Below are positions 282 through 13,094 of a stretch of 13,094 nucleotides of DNA, one piece after another. The notes under the pieces are model-generated. The model worked only from the letters and a program-made list of their open reading frames with translations. It was not told the DNA's origin and did no database searches. Both the position numbers and the translations under genes were made by a program. The DNA is from a virus (lineage: Duplodnaviria > Heunggongvirae > Uroviricota > Caudoviricetes). Location of the stretch: IMG/VR virus record IMGVR_UViG_2602041549_000009. One strand, given 5' to 3'. Numbering within the stretch: the first letter of the stretch is position 1; each line of letters begins with the position of its first letter.

Positions 282-1553
282 CTATTCTTTCCAGTCAATC
301 CCATCCAGTAAGCACCCTGCCTCATATTGCCCCACCACCCAGTCAAGGTTACAGGACTCATAGAACGCGAGGCGATTATACTGAGGCTCGTTTTTTACCA
401 GGCCACGAACGGAACCACGCTGCCAGTACAGACACAGATTGGCAAGAGGTGTGATCAATACAGCATTGTCCGGGAAAAATGGAACGGTCACAGCCGGGAG
501 ATTCCCCAGAACAGGATTTTTAATGATTTCCTCGTTAAGCAAAATTTCCTGATTCATCTGCGATGGATCAAGACGGTTTATCAAAGGCCATTGCTTACGG
601 ACCAGCGTATTGTGACTGCATACGGCCACAATGCCTTCCTGCCACTGTTCATCAATCATGGATTGCCAGGCATCCAGAACGAGCGCATCTATCGTATGGT
701 GTGTACCGCGTGTATTACTTTTCGGTGATGAAACAGAAAGGCCGCTGATAACCCTTCCCGCCGCTTCATTTCGAAACTTCTGCAACCAGCCCACGCCGCA
801 ATCATCACGCCCCGGATATGTTCCGGGATCTGATGTATCGGCATAGTGCGTACCGTTAAAACCAATCTGAATCAAATCCAGCCATTTCCGGCGTTCAAAA
901 GCAGCCCGTGCGCTTCCTTCAAGACCGTTTGCGGATGCGTGAGCATCAACATTGTCGTAGTTCAGCGCAAAATCAAAATTAACCTGCTCGCAGCGGTAGC
1001 CCCTTGAAACCAGTGAATGCGCCTGTAGTGGCGAACGGCGCTCGTGAGGTGGCGATGTACGTGCCAACGGCCCCGAAGCGTCTACCAGCACAACCCGACC
1101 TGATATATCCGTAACAGGCACGGGAGTTATTTCAGCAAGGAAATTTGCCTGCCATCCACTGGCAAGCGTTGCACTCTGGCGGGGAACGGGTTCAACTTCT
1201 GACGAATAGCGCGCAGTGTCACCGGAAAAGTGCAAATCCTTCGGATGCTTTCCGGTTATCGACTCGATAGCGCAATTGAAAACCATCTGAGCCTGTTGAT
1301 TTCGTTGTGATGCAACAGAATCAGCAGTGCAATTATAACGCTCAATGCCGTCGTTATTACCCCCACCGCTTGCAGTATGCAGGGTGTGAAGCTCAAGCTC
1401 ACGCTCCAGTTTTTGATATTCATTGTCCAGCGCGCGACGCGTCTCATTGCTTATGCTTGCTGTGTTTGCTTTCAGGCGATTCCGGGACATTAATCCCCTG
1501 AGTCGGCTCACTATATCAGCGCCGTGCAAATGTGGAGTATTCAGACCGCCCAT
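282..1553 (-). CDS. Hypothetical 423-aa protein of unknown function, translationally coupled to the upstream Psu-like gene; candidate satellite hotspot cargo
   Basis: Long minus-strand ORF. I chose the start at 1553 (MGGLNTPHLHG...) because its ATG overlaps the upstream stop as TAATG; the ORF track's 1694 start would overlap the upstream gene by 141 nt. I see no Walker A, HNH, reverse-transcriptase or other motif I can name. Confidence 0.6.
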   Translation of the reverse strand: MGGLNTPHLHGADIVSRLRGLMSRNRLKANTASISNETRRALDNEYQKLERELELHTLHTASGGGNNDGIERYNCTADSVASQRNQQAQMVFNCAIESITGKHPKDLHFSGDTARYSSEVEPVPRQSATLASGWQANFLAEITPVPVTDISGRVVLVDASGPLARTSPPHERRSPLQAHSLVSRGYRCEQVNFDFALNYDNVDAHASANGLEGSARAAFERRKWLDLIQIGFNGTHYADTSDPGTYPGRDDCGVGWLQKFRNEAAGRVISGLSVSSPKSNTRGTHHTIDALVLDAWQSMIDEQWQEGIVAVCSHNTLVRKQWPLINRLDPSQMNQEILLNEEIIKNPVLGNLPAVTVPFFPDNAVLITPLANLCLYWQRGSVRGLVKNEPQYNRLAFYESCNLDWVVGQYEAGCLLDGIDWKE

Positions 1554-2263
1554 TACTGCCACCCCCGGCAGAGTTCTCTGCCCTCCGCAAGGTCGCGCAT
1601 TTTTTCTGGATTCTGTCGCGCCGCGCTCCATTGTACAGGTGAAGGGGCGTTCCTGATTGTGCGGCTTACCGAATCCGGGAGTTTCTCCGGGCAATAACGC
1701 AGCGGGCTGGAGGTGTCGCTTTCGGTATCGTTAATCCGGCCGCGAATCATCCCGGCACTTTCAGCAGCATCTGTCGCTTTCAGTGTTTCGCATATTTTCT
1801 TTTCTGCGTTATACAGCGGCTGGCCAAGCAGCTCACATAAACCACGAATCAATAACAGAGCAGGGGTCAGCTCGTTAATCAGTTCGGGAAGTGCTTTTGC
1901 AAATATCTCTGCCCGCAACTTATTATCAATGCTTTCGTAAGCACAACCAGCCTCTGCCGCGTTATAACGACACTCCAGTAGCCTGATGCGCGCCTCATCA
2001 TGCAGCACCCGCAGACGCTCAAGATTTTCTCGCGCCACACCCGCCTGAATGGATAATTTCGCGGAGGCTTCCGTTTTTACGCCCAGCGCAGACAGGATTG
2101 AGTTCTGCCAGTCACGATCGAGAGATTCCAGCTCCCCTTTCGTCTGTTCGATAGTTGCTTCCAGATTGGTGATTAATGATTCCTGTTCACTGAGTTTTGC
2201 CATGGCTGTATCAAACTGTGCTTTACATACCTGATGTTCGGCGCTTGCCTGAGTTATATCCAT
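1553..2263 (-). CDS. psu: Psu-like (polarity suppression / capsid decoration) protein, P4 family, 236 aa
   Basis: ORF with SD AGGAG 6 nt before the ATG at 2263. Helical, coiled-coil-like composition with stretches (AQFDT near the N-terminus, ALPEL, ATDA) that resemble P4 Psu as I recall it. Lies downstream of an Ogr/Delta gene as in P4. Assignment is from memory, not alignment. Confidence 0.5.
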   Translation of the reverse strand: MDITQASAEHQVCKAQFDTAMAKLSEQESLITNLEATIEQTKGELESLDRDWQNSILSALGVKTEASAKLSIQAGVARENLERLRVLHDEARIRLLECRYNAAEAGCAYESIDNKLRAEIFAKALPELINELTPALLLIRGLCELLGQPLYNAEKKICETLKATDAAESAGMIRGRINDTESDTSSPLRYCPEKLPDSVSRTIRNAPSPVQWSAARQNPEKMRDLAEGRELCRGWQ

Positions 2264-3284: not shown

Positions 3285-3508
3285 GATGAACAATAGCGTC
3301 AAAAAGAGTGCTTTTGAGAGATTTTTTATGGCAACTGCGCCGCGTGTATTACGTTTTTTACCATCCCCGCCGCGCATGTACATACTTCATTTTTCTGCCA
3401 AACAACAGGGCAACTCCCCGTGACTGACAGCCCCAAAAAATCAATGATTGATGTTGCATTTTTGTTAGAGGTCAGGCCAGTTGTTTTGGGGCTCTGCCTC
3501 ATAATCCG

Positions 3509-3827
3509 GTGGGGGGTGCGCAAAGCGGTTACAACGGTTACAACAGTCAAAAATACCACTTAACAACATGATTTTAATGGATATTGTTTGTAACCGCTTT
3601 GCGGTTACACTGCGGTTACAACGGTTACAGGTTTCAAAAAGCACTTTATTATCAATCAATTAAAAACTTAACCTGTAACCGCCTGTAACCTAACAAAACG
3701 GTTACATGTAACCGCGTTGTAACCGCTTTTGTAACTCATCCGACCAGTTATAATATATTGATATATAATACAAAAATAAGTAATTCTAAATTTGTAACCG
3801 TTGTAACCGCTTTGCGCATCCCCCCCC
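3509..3827. repeat. Palindromically organised iteron field: at least 13 copies of GGTTACA / TGTAACC flanked by a ~32-bp inverted repeat with an AT-rich centre; candidate replication origin (ori/crr-like) or recombinase arm-site cluster
   Basis: Forward GGTTACA at 3527, 3536, 3603, 3614, 3623, 3700; reverse TGTAACC at 3589, 3674, 3684, 3708, 3718, 3793, 3802. Outer inverted repeat 3511-3543 versus 3793-3827 (26 bp identical). Inner perfect 12-bp inverted repeat CGGTTACAGGTT (3622-3633) / AACCTGTAACCG (3670-3681) across an AT-rich spacer. Confidence 0.7.
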
Positions 3828-5086: not shown

Positions 5087-7758
5087 TTTTCGGTGACCTC
5101 CTTGTAACTGAATATCCGGCATTTCAGCACTTCCGGCTCTCTGGCTTCGGCTACTCCTTTTCCGGCGTTTGCCTGTCTGGACACCTCACTACGAATGGTT
5201 TTACGGCCTGTCAACGGTCGGGAACGCCCAGCTCCGAGCAACTCAATCATTTCGCGATCGGTTCGGATCTCCACGCGGTGAATGGCGGCAGCCTGTGCCA
5301 GTTGCGGAATACTGATAGCAATCCCTTCGCGGCATCCCTTGCCGTAATGGTTTACACCGTATTTTGTTATGCCGTCCAGGAAGTCGAACGCCTCCCAGAA
5401 CTCCATCACTTCTGGCAAGTCAGCCGCCGCCGCTTTAACCTGCGCCGTTGCCATTTGTTCCAGTTCCAGACATGTGGCATCAAGCCATTCATCCGGGATA
5501 TCGATAACGCATTTCAGCGCCCTGACCAGCGCGATAAGTTGCGCGTGATTTTTGGCAATACGGGGATGGCGAATATTTTCGCATCCGCAAAGGCGTTCCG
5601 TTTCAGCGGGCGATACCTCCAGGAACGTTTGCATAATCGCCCGTTCCTGACTTACCGCCCGGTGAATAAACCCCGATACCTTCTCGACGGGGTAGAGTTC
5701 CAGCCGTCTCGCCGCCAGTCGGGTATCAGGTGAATGGCGTTTTTTATCGGTGTATATGCGTATCAGGCGCTCAATAATTGCCGGCGAGGCATTTACCCGC
5801 GCATTCTGCGCAATCACGATAGCGCCCTTAAAATCCGGGTCATAGGTGTTGTTATTGTTGGCCTTAACCCCACGAACACCGATACCGCCACCGTTATAGA
5901 GGCTTTTCAGGTTATCGAAGTCAAACGCACCTCTTTTTTGCGCATTGTCTCCCCGGTCTGCTTCAATCAGAACAACAGGCAATCCGGCGACCTGTCCAAA
6001 GGTGCGCTTCCAGCCCGCCTCTGATCCTTTGGTTGGATCAACTCCTTCGTAGTTGTCACGACCGCACAGCCGCCAGCAAAAATCAATCAATGTTGATTTG
6101 CCCGTTCCGGGCTCTCCGGTGACTTCAAGGAAAGGGAAGGATTCTTCTTTATCCCGGATTTGTTCGCTGAACAGGGAGCCCAACCAGAAAGCCAGGGTAA
6201 TAATTCCCTTTTCACCAAAAGCCAGCCAGAGATCTTCCACCCAGGACGCTGTAAATTCATCCGGTTTTTTGTAGTTAATCTGTAATGTGGGGTTTTCGCT
6301 TAATGGTTTTGCGTTTATGCCATCAATTTCAAAATAATCCTCGTCATTGATTTCATAAGTTTTTCCCTTGTAAACAGCAATATCATTAAACAGCCATGCC
6401 CCAATCGCCTTGTTGTATCCGATAAAATCCTGACCAATAACCTCTTTTATTGCGGGAAGGTCATTTTTTATTAATGCGTCAAGCTGCGTAGTCGTTCCGG
6501 TATAAATACCGCCTTTTGCCACGTGTAACAGGCGTTTTTTAAATTCAGATGAGGATGTTAATTGTCCTGATGTAAAGGTGTTTTTCACCGTAGCACCATC
6601 CGGGAACGTAACACGGAAGTAATACCATGCTTCATCCGTGTCATTATTTCGAATGTAATAAAGCGGCGCTGGGTTACAGTTTGCGATTTCTTTTACTGCA
6701 CCAGATTCCTTAAGTGCAATTTTGCGCGCTTCATCCTCATCAACATTTCGCTCATTAATGACACGCTCAACAGCCTTCATATGGCGCTCAATGTCCAGCT
6801 TGAACCAGAAAACACGGTTATCAAAAGTAAAATGAAATTCCTTCCGCTCACGAAAGGAAAACATTATTAGTGCCTTATCTCTTGGAGATTTCGCCAGCAA
6901 TAAATCACCGTAATAACGGTATCTTTTCACATCATGGCCACGCAGCTTTCCGGCGATGTGTAAATCATTCCAGTCGCGTTTATTGTTGTTTTTACCTGGC
7001 AACGCCGCTGCCGTTCTCCAGCCGTCTTCGGCGCTGCGTTCTGCATGTTTTTTCGCGTAACGCTCACCTGCACGCCCGTTATCCAGCGCCCACACGATAA
7101 CCGGACGGGGATTATCCCCGCACAGCTTCGCCAGCTCTTCCAGTGCCTTATCAGGGTAGTTCACGGCAGACATGACAGAAACGGCCGCAATGCCATTCTG
7201 GTTAAGGCTGATGGCATCAAAGATACCCTCACAAATCCAGATTTCTTTGGCCTTGCTTAAATCTGCTCCCGGATAAGCCCACCACAACCCCTTGTAGCTG
7301 CCGGAAAAATTCGCCTTCCGTTCGAAGCGTTCCGGTCGGTCTATGATGCGCTCCCACCACACGTCGTCAGCCAGCGTAAAACGCACAGTAGCGGCCTGTT
7401 CGCCGCTTTCCTTGTCTTTGTATCGCTCCTGGGTAAATACCCCCTTCAGTGGCTCTGTAGCAATATTGCGTGCCTCCAGGAGATAAGCTGCCGCCGCTGC
7501 GTATGGTTCATCTTTCGTACTGATATAGCGATCTGACCATGATGAAAACACATCCGGGTAAAGTTCTTTAGTCAGCAGGTCTGTACCGCATTTATTTTCA
7601 CGCCCGCAGTGTACGATGTACGGCCTTTCAAGGCTGGTAAACAACTCTTTCTTTCCACATTGCGGACAAACACCATACCGGAGGTAGTTATTTTCTTCTT
7701 TGAAGTTGTAATCACGGATAAGACGGTTAATAATCTCTTTTCTGATGTCAGATTTCAT
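5083..7758 (-). CDS. P4 alpha-like primase-helicase (zinc-binding N-terminus, TOPRIM-like motif, C-terminal P-loop NTPase), about 891 aa
   Basis: N-terminal CPQCGKK...HCGRENKCG zinc-ribbon-like motif; WICEGIFDAISL (EGxxD TOPRIM signature); Walker A GEPGTGKST and Walker-B-like VVLIEADRGD. Start placed at 7758 (MKSDIRK...) because SD GGAG sits 8 nt upstream; the ORF track's 7782 start lies inside the upstream hairpin. Confidence 0.85.
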   Translation of the reverse strand: MKSDIRKEIINRLIRDYNFKEENNYLRYGVCPQCGKKELFTSLERPYIVHCGRENKCGTDLLTKELYPDVFSSWSDRYISTKDEPYAAAAAYLLEARNIATEPLKGVFTQERYKDKESGEQAATVRFTLADDVWWERIIDRPERFERKANFSGSYKGLWWAYPGADLSKAKEIWICEGIFDAISLNQNGIAAVSVMSAVNYPDKALEELAKLCGDNPRPVIVWALDNGRAGERYAKKHAERSAEDGWRTAAALPGKNNNKRDWNDLHIAGKLRGHDVKRYRYYGDLLLAKSPRDKALIMFSFRERKEFHFTFDNRVFWFKLDIERHMKAVERVINERNVDEDEARKIALKESGAVKEIANCNPAPLYYIRNNDTDEAWYYFRVTFPDGATVKNTFTSGQLTSSSEFKKRLLHVAKGGIYTGTTTQLDALIKNDLPAIKEVIGQDFIGYNKAIGAWLFNDIAVYKGKTYEINDEDYFEIDGINAKPLSENPTLQINYKKPDEFTASWVEDLWLAFGEKGIITLAFWLGSLFSEQIRDKEESFPFLEVTGEPGTGKSTLIDFCWRLCGRDNYEGVDPTKGSEAGWKRTFGQVAGLPVVLIEADRGDNAQKRGAFDFDNLKSLYNGGGIGVRGVKANNNNTYDPDFKGAIVIAQNARVNASPAIIERLIRIYTDKKRHSPDTRLAARRLELYPVEKVSGFIHRAVSQERAIMQTFLEVSPAETERLCGCENIRHPRIAKNHAQLIALVRALKCVIDIPDEWLDATCLELEQMATAQVKAAAADLPEVMEFWEAFDFLDGITKYGVNHYGKGCREGIAISIPQLAQAAAIHRVEIRTDREMIELLGAGRSRPLTGRKTIRSEVSRQANAGKGVAEAREPEVLKCRIFSYKEVTEK

Positions 7759-7801: not shown

Positions 7802-8107
7802 TTAATTACTCGTTACTTCTTGTTTCTTGGTAATCCCTGCGGCTTCAGCTTTGTGCCATGAAAAAATACCGCCAGAAAGATGCATACCAGATTTTATTGT
7901 TTCTAATTCCCGATAAATAATATTAAACAGAGATACAATTGCTTTGTTTGTGATTTCTGAAGATGCTCCGCAATCCCTCTCACCAAACATGATGGATATA
8001 AGATCGATGAGGTTAATTACATCTGCGAGATCTTCTTTTGCACTCTCTGTAAAAAATCCAATGTATTCTTTATCTAAAATATCCGCGTAATTCTGATTTT
8101 CAGACAT
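7802..8107 (-). CDS. Hypothetical 101-aa protein, AT-rich compositional outlier
   Basis: ORF with SD GGGGGAG 5 nt before the ATG at 8107. The gene is visibly more AT-rich than its neighbours. No recognisable motif. Confidence 0.6.
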   Translation of the reverse strand: MSENQNYADILDKEYIGFFTESAKEDLADVINLIDLISIMFGERDCGASSEITNKAIVSLFNIIYRELETIKSGMHLSGGIFSWHKAEAAGITKKQEVTSN

Positions 8108-8980: not shown

Positions 8981-9252
8981 ACGTGGTGGCGAGACGTAAC
9001 AGGGTTGACAGACTGGCAAATTGGGAAACCAGCGAGCATAAAGCTCCCCCATTACGCCCCGCCATAATACGGGAAAGGGTGGTATTACGGGCACAAAAAA
9101 ACCGCATTACGGAATACAAGCGGCTACCCGCCAATTTATTCAGGCTGTCAAACCCGGCACCTGTTTTATGAGGTGCGGGCAAACGATACGCCATGACAAA
9201 AAAGCGAGTCAAGCAATATTGCAAATTATTTTGGCGCGATTGCGCTGAGTGA

Positions 9253-12200: not shown

Positions 12201-12401
12201 TTACCCATTGGCGCGGCTTAAGAGCTTATTTTTGAATTCACAATGGTCGCGATATAACCATCTTGCGCGTCCGTGGATAACTTTGGCTTTTGGCAGGTCG
12301 CCGGACTTAATCCGGTCATAGATGAAGGTTTTACCGAAGCCAGTATCGGCCATGATGAATTTCAAATCAACCAGGGAATCAGGCTGTAGTTCGTGTTGCA
12401 T
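12201..12401 (-). CDS. Second AlpA-like helix-turn-helix regulator / excisionase-like protein, 66 aa
   Basis: ...FIMADTGFGKTFIYDRIKSGDLPKAKVIHGRARWL fits the AlpA/HTH_17 pattern less closely than the 9840-10061 gene. SD GGAG upstream of the ATG. Lies directly upstream of the integrase in the same orientation (xis-int-like). Confidence 0.6.
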   Translation of the reverse strand: MQHELQPDSLVDLKFIMADTGFGKTFIYDRIKSGDLPKAKVIHGRARWLYRDHCEFKNKLLSRANG

Positions 12402-12440
12402 GAGTGCTATCTCCGAATAGGGAATCGAACCTGCAAATCA

Positions 12441-12468
12441 GGCAATAAAAAACCGCCATCAGGCGGCT
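12441..12468 (-). terminator. Rho-independent terminator after the 12510-12809 gene
   Basis: Stem CCGCC / GGCGG (12453-12457, 12462-12466) with loop ATCA; on the minus strand it is followed by TTTTTATTG. Confidence 0.55.
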
Positions 12469-12509
12469 TGGTGTTCTTTCAGTTCTTCAATTCGAATATT
12501 GGTTACGTC

Positions 12510-12809
12510 TTATTCGATGCGCACTCCTGGTATTTCGCCTTTTGATATTGCTAAGTCATAAATTTGCGCTGCACTATACCCATCTCGCATCCATGAATCT
12601 AAGGCGCGAACAGCCTCGCTACGCTTTTTATCTTCTCTCTCATTTTTGATATCAACGAGGACATCAACGCAATTAAGGCAAATGTGGATTTTGTCCTTAC
12701 ATTCGATCATGGCGGCTTTGCCATGATTTCCTCCACACAGTGAGCATAAATCTTCAGGGTCTGGCTGGTATTTCTGTAACGTTAGAGGGTTGAATGTTGA
12801 ACAGGCCAT
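12510..12809 (-). CDS. Hypothetical cysteine-rich (possible zinc-ribbon) protein, about 99 aa
   Basis: Cys cluster CSLCGG...C...HICLNC. Start is ambiguous among three in-frame ATGs (12821, 12815, 12809); GGAG precedes the third (MACSTFNPL...). Confidence 0.5.
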   Translation of the reverse strand: MACSTFNPLTLQKYQPDPEDLCSLCGGNHGKAAMIECKDKIHICLNCVDVLVDIKNEREDKKRSEAVRALDSWMRDGYSAAQIYDLAISKGEIPGVRIE

Positions 12810-12850
12810 AATCATCTCCATAAAACAAAACTCGCCGTAGCGAGTTCAGA

Positions 12851-12880
12851 TAAAAGAAATCCCCGCGAGTGCGAGGATTG
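12851..12880 (-). terminator. Candidate intrinsic terminator after the 12881-13094 gene
   Basis: On the minus-strand RNA: 9-bp stem AAUCCUCGC / GCGGGGAUU (one G-U pair) with loop ACUC, followed by UCUUUUAU. Confidence 0.45.
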
Positions 12881-13094
12881 TTATTCATTGCCGATATTAA
12901 CCTTTATCGCGTACACCTTTACCGGTTTATCACCGAAGTGGGGATGTGTGATTGTCTTTATTTCATATCCGTCATACGGAACATCAATTCTACGGCTGGA
13001 ATCGTCGCGCTTCGGATATCCCTTTGTGATAATCAGGCGGTCATATTCCCGGAACATGGATTTGCCCCTATATTTCCAGACATCTGTTATCACT
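12881..13094 (-). CDS. Hypothetical protein, probably 5'-truncated by the window edge
   Basis: ORF runs to the window edge with no ATG (the track's start is a GTG at the boundary). No recognisable motif. Confidence 0.4.
   Translation of the reverse strand, partial: VITDVWKYRGKSMFREYDRLIITKGYPKRDDSSRRIDVPYDGYEIKTITHPHFGDKPVKVYAIKVNIGNE

Follow-up and report, generated by a model that had tools for sequence, protein, structure and literature searches.

Which function does a small, AT-rich gene of no known family serve directly in front of the primase gene of a phage satellite? The question is raised by an open reading frame of 101 codons in a 13,094-nt stretch of viral DNA (IMG/VR record IMGVR_UViG_2602041549_000009, Caudoviricetes). 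This whole stretch is called the window in the following, and all positions refer to it unless another accession is given. A sequence-only reading had taken the ORF for an orphan inserted between the early small-gene operon and the primase, i.e., a separately acquired accessory gene.

Gene organization of the satellite

The window is a P4-like satellite of Escherichia coli with a P2-family capsid gene of its own. The genes and RNAs described in this section all lie on the minus strand and begin with a P4-type integrase (11976-10672) and AlpA (10061-9840). An RNA immunity region of the P4/P1 type (8982-9189) heads the early operon and overlaps an Icd-like ORF (about 9278-8757; phage_ICD_like match). 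In this region Rfam detected the a1/b1 target sites (9189-9137), an isrK-like RNA (9176-9095; 52.3 bits) and the C4/CI RNA (9069-8982; 70.5 bits, E 2e-12). Three small early genes of 60 aa (8764-8582), 62 aa (8579-8391) and 72 aa (8394-8176) follow, which are conserved and have homologues also in the epsilon-type sister satellite L023 described below. Then come the 101-aa gene (8107-7802) and, directly 3′ of it, a Toprim primase of the phiCTX/RSY1/ESSI2 type (7758-5083). From the C4/isrK/a1b1 RNAs to the primase the early genes are contiguous on this one strand, and the 101-aa gene belongs to this early operon downstream of the C4/CI-type immunity RNA; it is not an insert between this operon and the primase, as had been assumed. 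Beyond the primase we find a second integrase, int2 (5086-4076; Int_N and Phage_integrase domains), an Ogr/Delta zinc finger (2895-2713) and the P2-family major capsid gene (1553-282), which is preceded by a gene for a 236-aa protein.

With integrase, AlpA, CI/C4 RNA immunity, primase and Ogr/Delta the window has the components by which P4-like satellites are recognized. Canonical P4-like satellites carry int, alpA, epsilon, cnr, alpha, sid, delta and psu (de Sousa and Rocha; PMC8628076, PMC10085698). The window has in common with them the P4-type integrase, AlpA, C4/CI RNA immunity, the Icd/Ash ORF, an early operon terminated by the primase and the Ogr/Delta activator. It differs from them in lacking sid, psu and cnr and in having a P2-family major capsid gene with its 236-aa coiled-coil neighbor, a phiCTX-type primase and an extra helper-type integrase. 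No Sid or Psu homologue was detected in any locus with the 101-aa family, the P2-family capsid gene being present instead. The primase is 41-52% identical to the primases of the P2-like phages phiCTX, RSY1, Dobby and ESSI2_ev239 and is not a P4 alpha protein. A near-identical core is present in E. coli C25, between hpt and gcd. A search of the genome contigs with the primase returned a single locus, and there is no tRNA gene in the window.

Some further features of the window may be mentioned here. The capsid gene and its coiled-coil neighbor of 236-290 aa form a pair (282-2263, minus strand) which also occurs in the loci L013, L016 and L030, and the neighbor may be a scaffold; in the relatives L021, L022 and L030 this pair is found upstream of the early operon and not at the far end. 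Downstream of int2, an AT-rich region (3508-3827) contains a dense cluster of 9-mers (GCGGTTACA/TGTAACCGC, at least 14 copies in both orientations) and includes a 36-nt inverted repeat (3508-3543 / 3792-3827). This cluster looks like an iteron-type origin or a crr analogue of the satellite. Past the P4-type integrase there are small ORFs of 66 aa (HTH_17-like), 103 aa (with a ClpX-type zinc-finger-like motif) and 70 aa (12201-13093, minus strand), which may be part of a neighboring element.

The 101-aa gene founds a small family

The ORF at 8107-7802 is confirmed as a real gene: the identical 101-aa protein has been annotated by NCBI in E. coli C25 as a hypothetical protein, and the dN/dS values are 0.2-0.4. 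The gene also has, as had been noticed, a strong ribosome-binding site of its own. We read it from the sequence as the Shine–Dalgarno motif GGGGGAG (8119-8113, minus strand), located 5 nt before the ATG and kept in all related islands. The protein is acidic (pI 4.7) and has no recognizable DNA-binding motif. Its N-terminus (YxGFFTE..DVIN) and its C-terminus (YRELxxIKSGMHLSGGIFSW) are conserved and its middle is hypervariable.

The gene is indeed more AT-rich than its flanks. It has 35.0% GC (GC3 28.4%) versus 45.9% for the window, 48.9% for the primase and 51.6% for the upstream 72-aa gene, and its GC content is the lowest of the 17 genes tested. The statistical weight of this deviation is moderate, with a z-score of -1.9 against all 306-nt segments, 2.8% of which are equally AT-rich, the others among these all being intergenic. 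The same composition is found in the 12 E. coli alleles (34.6-38.2% GC) and in distant homologues (33-39.5% GC), whose complete primase genes have 51-55% GC. Low GC is therefore a trait of the whole family, including the distant homologues, and no mark of recent acquisition. A recent horizontal acquisition, as might be deduced from the low GC, was rejected on these grounds.

The primase is present in 67 of 5426 complete E. coli genomes, and in 66 of these 67 the 101-aa gene is located directly upstream of it; the sole exception is strain KCJ3K291 with its divergent sister element L023. The gene is likewise in place in all seven primase-selected IMG/VR contigs with at least 89% primase identity. 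These counts speak against an orphan inserted between operon and primase. The comparison across related islands, which had been suggested as a check, showed the gene fixed at its position throughout the family, and this is the very outcome that the sequence-only reading had named as contrary to it. The 101-aa gene is part of the core of a P4-like satellite that encodes a capsid; it is fixed in place, but its sequence is extremely variable.

Scans of the protein and its homologues against Pfam, PHROGs, NCBIfam and PADLOC gave no match, nor did tblastn against 50,697 phage records, and a sequence profile search of the PDB yielded nothing. The homology and structure searches proposed earlier thus provided neither a known family nor a fold relative in BFVD or the PDB. 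Relatives were nevertheless obtained from larger protein collections. Among 5.8 billion proteins 67 homologues were found, every one of them from E. coli or Salmonella. When 1.8 billion cluster representatives were searched with a profile, 17 proteins came up, which added a dozen remote relatives of 22-32% identity. By these searches the 101-aa protein founds an unannotated family, which is small and confined to satellites of the Enterobacteriaceae type. Wherever the contigs are readable, the remote homologues occupy the same slot before the primase, which there has the architecture Zn_Ribbon_Prim + Toprim_3 + DUF927. These loci start with int, a hypothetical gene, AlpA/HTH_17, Phage_ASH and three or four tiny genes and continue with the family member, the primase, (Int_N), Ogr_Delta, a 242-aa gene, the P2 capsid gene and cargo.

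When all small proteins whose genes precede a primase in about 260 loci were compared profile to profile, one notable match was obtained. The proteins of this cluster (C17; 65-75 aa) are found on phiCTX-like phage contigs (L157, L162-L164, L177) and match the 101-aa family with an hhalign probability of 71% (P 3.7e-5, 60 columns). They share with it the pattern ..L..LI.L...L.L.SK, a variable stretch and E.N.LF, but they are shorter and do not have the C-terminal GGIFS strand. Their genes, of which there are often two, are found 0.7-1.3 kb before the primase. The similarity appears too weak to call homology. A weak collinear similarity was also seen to the 75-100-aa proteins which precede Cnr in other satellites (probabilities 3-15%). 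From these matches one may suspect a more extended group of small helical-hairpin proteins, but they do not establish homology.

Conserved hairpins on both sides of the gene

The two hairpins that had been proposed to bracket the gene are both present. The downstream hairpin (7797-7771, minus strand; 11 bp, -21.3 kcal/mol, z -4.3) lies between the stop codon of the 101-aa gene (7804-7802) and the ribosome-binding site and ATG (7758) of the primase. The upstream hairpin (8137-8116, minus strand; -9.5 kcal/mol, z -0.8) is weak by energy alone, and its 3′ arm extends into the G-run of the ribosome-binding site of the 101-aa gene. About 92% of the pairing in both hairpins is kept across the related islands, and two pairs of each hairpin show compensatory changes. 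For the upstream hairpin these are C-G to U-A and A-U to G-C, and its covariation score was reached in 0 of 500 shuffles. The design of the upstream hairpin recurs in the distant loci L004, L013 and L016, and unrelated hairpins are found at the position of the downstream hairpin in L004, L010, L013, L016, L023 and L140. Since the pairing is kept and differing hairpins occur at both places in distant satellites, we conclude that both are conserved structures, the upstream one formed in the RNA or the DNA.

The downstream hairpin has an A-run on its 5′ side and a clean T-run on the opposite (plus) strand, a pattern which is also present in L004, L010, L013, L016 and L023, and in the sense direction its U-tract is broken by the ribosome-binding site of the primase. 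Read as a canonical intrinsic terminator, it points in the direction opposite to that of the operon. Possible roles are the termination of antisense transcripts or, in the sense direction, a leaky attenuation or a stabilization of the mRNA 3′ end. In E. coli E94 and E92 the distance between primase and 101-aa gene is about 1.06 kb versus about 45 nt in the other islands (spacer NZ_CP119740.1 1582940-1584004; H7, H8, H50). This spacer is probably an insertion at the hairpin, perhaps an IS element.

A DnaA-box-like site had also been pointed out just upstream of the gene. The 9-mer in question, TTATCCACT (8167-8159, minus strand), is a chance match and can be dismissed: the window contains three one-mismatch matches to the DnaA box with 3.4 expected by chance, and the 9-mer is not conserved, the related islands having TTGTCCACT, TCATCCACT, TTACCAACT or TTACCCACT at this place.

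The slot before the primase is shared with epsilon

Strain KCJ3K291 has a fully syntenic sister satellite (L023) with a primase 60% identical to that of the window, and in this satellite Icd/Ash is followed by genes of 84, 63, 64 and 77 aa, the slot and the primase. The slot is filled here by an 87-aa protein of the Pfam family PF25738 "Derepression" (E 6e-20). P4 epsilon, which matches PF25738 at E 9e-51, is the founding member of this family. A PF25738 protein occupies the slot also in the capsid-encoding satellites L030-L036, which have a zinc-ribbon primase. Epsilon is described as an antirepressor which binds the C repressor of P2 (PMC2995052, citing Liu et al. 1998).

Among 134 loci, which were fetched via either of the two families, 45 contained the 101-aa family and 89 contained epsilon, and in no locus did both occur together. 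Each primase type occurs with each of the two slot occupants: next to a Toprim_2 primase we counted the 101-aa gene 27 times and epsilon twice, and next to a primase of the type Zn_Ribbon_Prim+Toprim_3+DUF927 the numbers were nine and eight, respectively. Epsilon and the 101-aa protein are both small (about 90-100 aa), both have their genes in the early operon, after the CI/C4 RNA and the Ash/Icd ORF, and in the capsid-encoding sister satellites the epsilon family uses the same slot before the primase in mutual exclusion with the 101-aa family. They differ in charge, epsilon being basic (pI 9.3) and the 101-aa protein acidic, and the cassette-like hypervariable middle is a feature of the latter. 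The two share no sequence or profile similarity: hmmscan of the window protein and five homologues gave no match to PF25738 at E values up to 10, and hhalign of the two family alignments gave a probability of 0.3%.

With this position in mind, the 101-aa protein may be regarded as a candidate helper-specific antirepressor, i.e., as a non-homologous stand-in for P4 epsilon, and we would give this proposal an even chance. It speaks against the proposal that no homology to epsilon was detectable and that no fold match was obtained in BFVD or the PDB.

The neighborhood of the primase allows for another interpretation. In P4 itself cnr (ORF106, DUF5375) is located directly upstream of alpha, and epsilon lies about 1 kb further upstream. 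Since it is cnr and not epsilon that directly precedes alpha in P4, adjacency to the primase could equally suggest a role in replication. P4 Cnr is a negative regulator of P4 replication which acts through the alpha protein. Like the 101-aa protein it has about 100 aa and is encoded immediately upstream of the satellite primase in the same operon. The 101-aa protein might hence bind the adjacent primase or initiator and tune its activity or its binding to the origin, as Cnr does with alpha. Such a role would agree with the constant position of the gene directly upstream of the primase (0-64 nt among the loci with the family; 43 nt in the window, from the stop codon at 7802 to the primase ATG at 7758), with the conserved hairpin between the two genes, with the occurrence of cnr at that position or region in 90% of canonical P4-like elements (PMC8628076) and with the finding that none of the 45 capsid-encoding loci with the 101-aa family has a Cnr homologue.

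Several results argue against this role. The 101-aa family has no similarity to Cnr, neither as a match to DUF5375 (the P4 ORF106 control gave 3e-63) nor in hhalign with P4 Cnr (probability 0.07%), and hhalign with P4 ORF151 was negative as well. Members of the family are found next to primases of two unrelated architectures. Identical alleles of the 101-aa gene stand beside different primase alleles, and 99.8%-identical primases beside 79%-identical 101-aa proteins; the correlation between the two genes is weak (Mantel r only about 0.2; 0.22-0.24), and the co-evolution with the primase that is expected of a Cnr-like protein is not seen. Moreover, the sister satellites with epsilon in the slot have neither the 101-aa family nor Cnr. 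The 101-aa gene was never found together with Cnr, Sid or Psu, whereas Cnr joins epsilon in the P4-like elements (78 loci with both). All in all, we regard a Cnr-like function as improbable.

In a primase-selected sample, the slot before more distant zinc-ribbon primases can be taken by a Cnr-like gene or by a 136-aa gene, and some of the satellites with a Cnr-like gene there contain no recognizable epsilon. Thus the slot is not reserved for a single function. In L201-L207 (3337-3624 in L201), L188 and L208 a Cnr-like gene directly precedes the zinc-ribbon primase, and just upstream of it a protein of 75-95 aa is encoded. The 94-aa type of this protein has the motif LSEDxFGKLTRARN, which resembles LSxExYHKLNRARN of epsilon and is missed by the epsilon HMM. 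In view of this resemblance, PF25738 may not cover the whole epsilon family.

A hypervariable middle moved by recombination

The 12 E. coli islands differ far more in the 101-aa protein (53-100% amino acid identity) than in the primase (88-99.8%) or in the upstream 72-aa protein (89-100%). A sliding comparison located a trough of identity inside the 101-aa gene, at about 8050-7930 (about codons 20-58), where the nucleotide identity falls to 35-40% versus 90-100% in the gene ends and in both neighbors. Between the window and the island L020, dS is 0.018 for the primase and 0.019 for the upstream gene; for the middle of the 101-aa gene dS is 0.72 and dN 0.19. Omega is 0.25-0.4 throughout. As dS is inflated as much as dN, the variants represent old allele classes which have been exchanged by recombination, the breakpoints lying within the gene. 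For the same reason and from the omega values, recent positive selection was rejected as the cause of the divergence. Of the earlier proposal of a separately acquired accessory gene, the part that survives is that the gene has a history of its own (dS at least 0.7 in the middle versus 0.02 in the flanks); a variable presence and a location at a cargo site were not found.

An AF2 model calculated from 66 sequences (pLDDT 78, pTM 0.60) predicts a strand, two long helices, a beta-hairpin and a short helix; a model from 25 sequences (pLDDT 54) was too poor for use. In the better model the variable region corresponds to the two helix ends and the low-confidence loop between them, i.e., to the tip of a helical hairpin. 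No fold match to the model was found in BFVD or the PDB. The repressors of the P2 family are heteroimmune and 43-63% identical (PMC1904268). Old specificity classes which are maintained and shuffled, as the allele pattern suggests, would be expected of a protein facing such repressors.

Co-variation with a helper-type integrase

Among 23-24 distinct islands, the 101-aa gene and int2, which flank the conserved primase, are the only hypervariable core genes. The mean pairwise amino acid distance is 0.36 for the 101-aa protein and 0.31 for int2, compared with 0.065 for the primase and 0.045 for the upstream gene. The allele classes of the two variable genes co-vary (Mantel r 0.58-0.60, p 0.002), although this p-value and the Fisher p-value given below are optimistic because many of the E. 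coli genomes are clonal and the loci were fetched via either family. No such relation exists between the 101-aa gene and the adjacent upstream gene (Mantel r -0.03 to -0.06) or the capsid gene (r 0.03).

By its closest relatives int2 is a helper-type integrase (P2-like Peduoviridae). With the integrases of phages P88 and P2, the int2 of the window has an identity of 77% and 58%, respectively. In otherwise near-identical islands int2 falls into three deep classes, which are 47-51% identical to that of the window and match the integrases of different Peduoviridae; the identity is 89% between the second class and vB_EcoM-569R5 and 82% between the third and Chuche/P884B11. The role of int2 might be to excise the helper prophage, to direct the choice of site or to resolve multimers. 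In these phages the gene of the C immunity repressor immediately adjoins int, and the C proteins are 37% (569R5), 31% (P884B11) and 29% (Chuche) identical to that of P88. Since the 101-aa gene co-varies with int2 and int adjoins C in the helpers, the alleles of the 101-aa gene are linked to a marker of the int-C immunity module. The link between allele and helper repressor is indirect, via int2.

We also searched the E. coli genomes for the C genes themselves. A full-length P88-type C gene is present in 23 of 5426 genomes. It occurs in three of the seven genomes with the allele class of the window, a fourth having a chimeric copy, and in 2 of 59 other satellite genomes (Fisher p 0.007, a value inflated by clonality). 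The C genes corresponding to allele classes B and C were found in 275 and 222 genomes, respectively, and a Chuche-type C gene had no match in E. coli RefSeq.

The co-variation could be explained more directly if the 101-aa protein were a partner of int2, i.e., a directionality or activity factor acting by protein–protein contact. Beside the shared hypervariability of the two genes, the locus L187, where an int2-like gene comes directly after an epsilon homologue, would fit such a partnership. Classical directionality factors of tyrosine recombinases are basic DNA binders, but the 101-aa protein is acidic and without a recognizable DNA-binding motif. Sister satellites with int2 hold epsilon in the slot, and what epsilon is documented to act on is the repressor of the helper rather than an integrase (PMC2995052). 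In addition, the co-variation is equally explained if both genes are matched to the same int-C module of the helper. We consider a direct partnership with int2 unlikely.

The variability bears also on the suggestion, made in the sequence-only reading, of an anti-defence, superinfection exclusion or helper-interference factor engaged in an arms race. Old allele classes in a hypervariable gene would be in keeping with this, as would a small, acidic protein of no known family encoded by an AT-rich gene. An accessory factor would not, however, be expected in essentially every member of the lineage at a fixed place in the core early operon and outside the cargo regions of the islands (MazEF, HicAB, YoeB, UDG), and its alleles would vary freely rather than together with a helper-type integrase. 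What can be retained of the suggestion is a helper-directed activity, to which the epsilon slot and the co-variation with int2 point; a defence-related one finds no match in PADLOC. An accessory function of this kind seems to us a rather poor candidate.

Proposed function and implications

The antirepressor function is preferred here because of the slot shared with epsilon, the mutual exclusivity with epsilon, the shuffled alleles reminiscent of specificity classes and the co-variation with a marker of the int-C module. The 101-aa gene is the last small gene of the early operon, which is silenced by the C4/CI-type immunity RNA and expressed upon infection or derepression. In the mechanism that we propose, the conserved N- and C-terminal parts would form the fold (two short strands and the helical hairpin), and the hypervariable tip of the hairpin would bind the C-type repressor of one particular P88/P2-like helper prophage and lift repression. 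Beyond the primase, int2 would supply the cognate recombinase for the same helper, so that the two genes would constitute a helper-induction pair. Binding to the helper repressor is inferred, as is the role of int2 in helper induction.

In a more extended form of the proposal, satellites would possess in the 101-aa family a second type of antirepressor, structurally unrelated to epsilon, with its specificity in an exchangeable, hypervariable helical tip. Together with int2, an integrase of the helper's own type, it would make up a "helper-induction module" of two genes, which would stay matched to the int-C module of one P88/P2-like helper while the rest of the satellite recombines freely. We hold this extended proposal to be plausible, though just short of an even chance.

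To our knowledge, the way in which satellites recognize and switch on their helpers is understood in few examples, namely, P4 epsilon and the SaPI Stl repressor with its antirepressors. The 101-aa family is most likely a variant of this satellite antirepressor theme. Should it be a regulator of replication, it would still define the core gene, so far without annotation, of a branch of P4-like satellites that is widespread and encodes a capsid. If it is an antirepressor, a new protein family would do the job of epsilon with a swappable specificity region, and from its pairing with a helper-type integrase one would see how lineages of satellites keep up with heteroimmune P2-like helpers. The family would then offer a sequence marker that predicts which satellites and prophages form mobilization pairs in E. 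coli and Salmonella, as well as a small antirepressor scaffold which could be engineered to induce chosen prophages.
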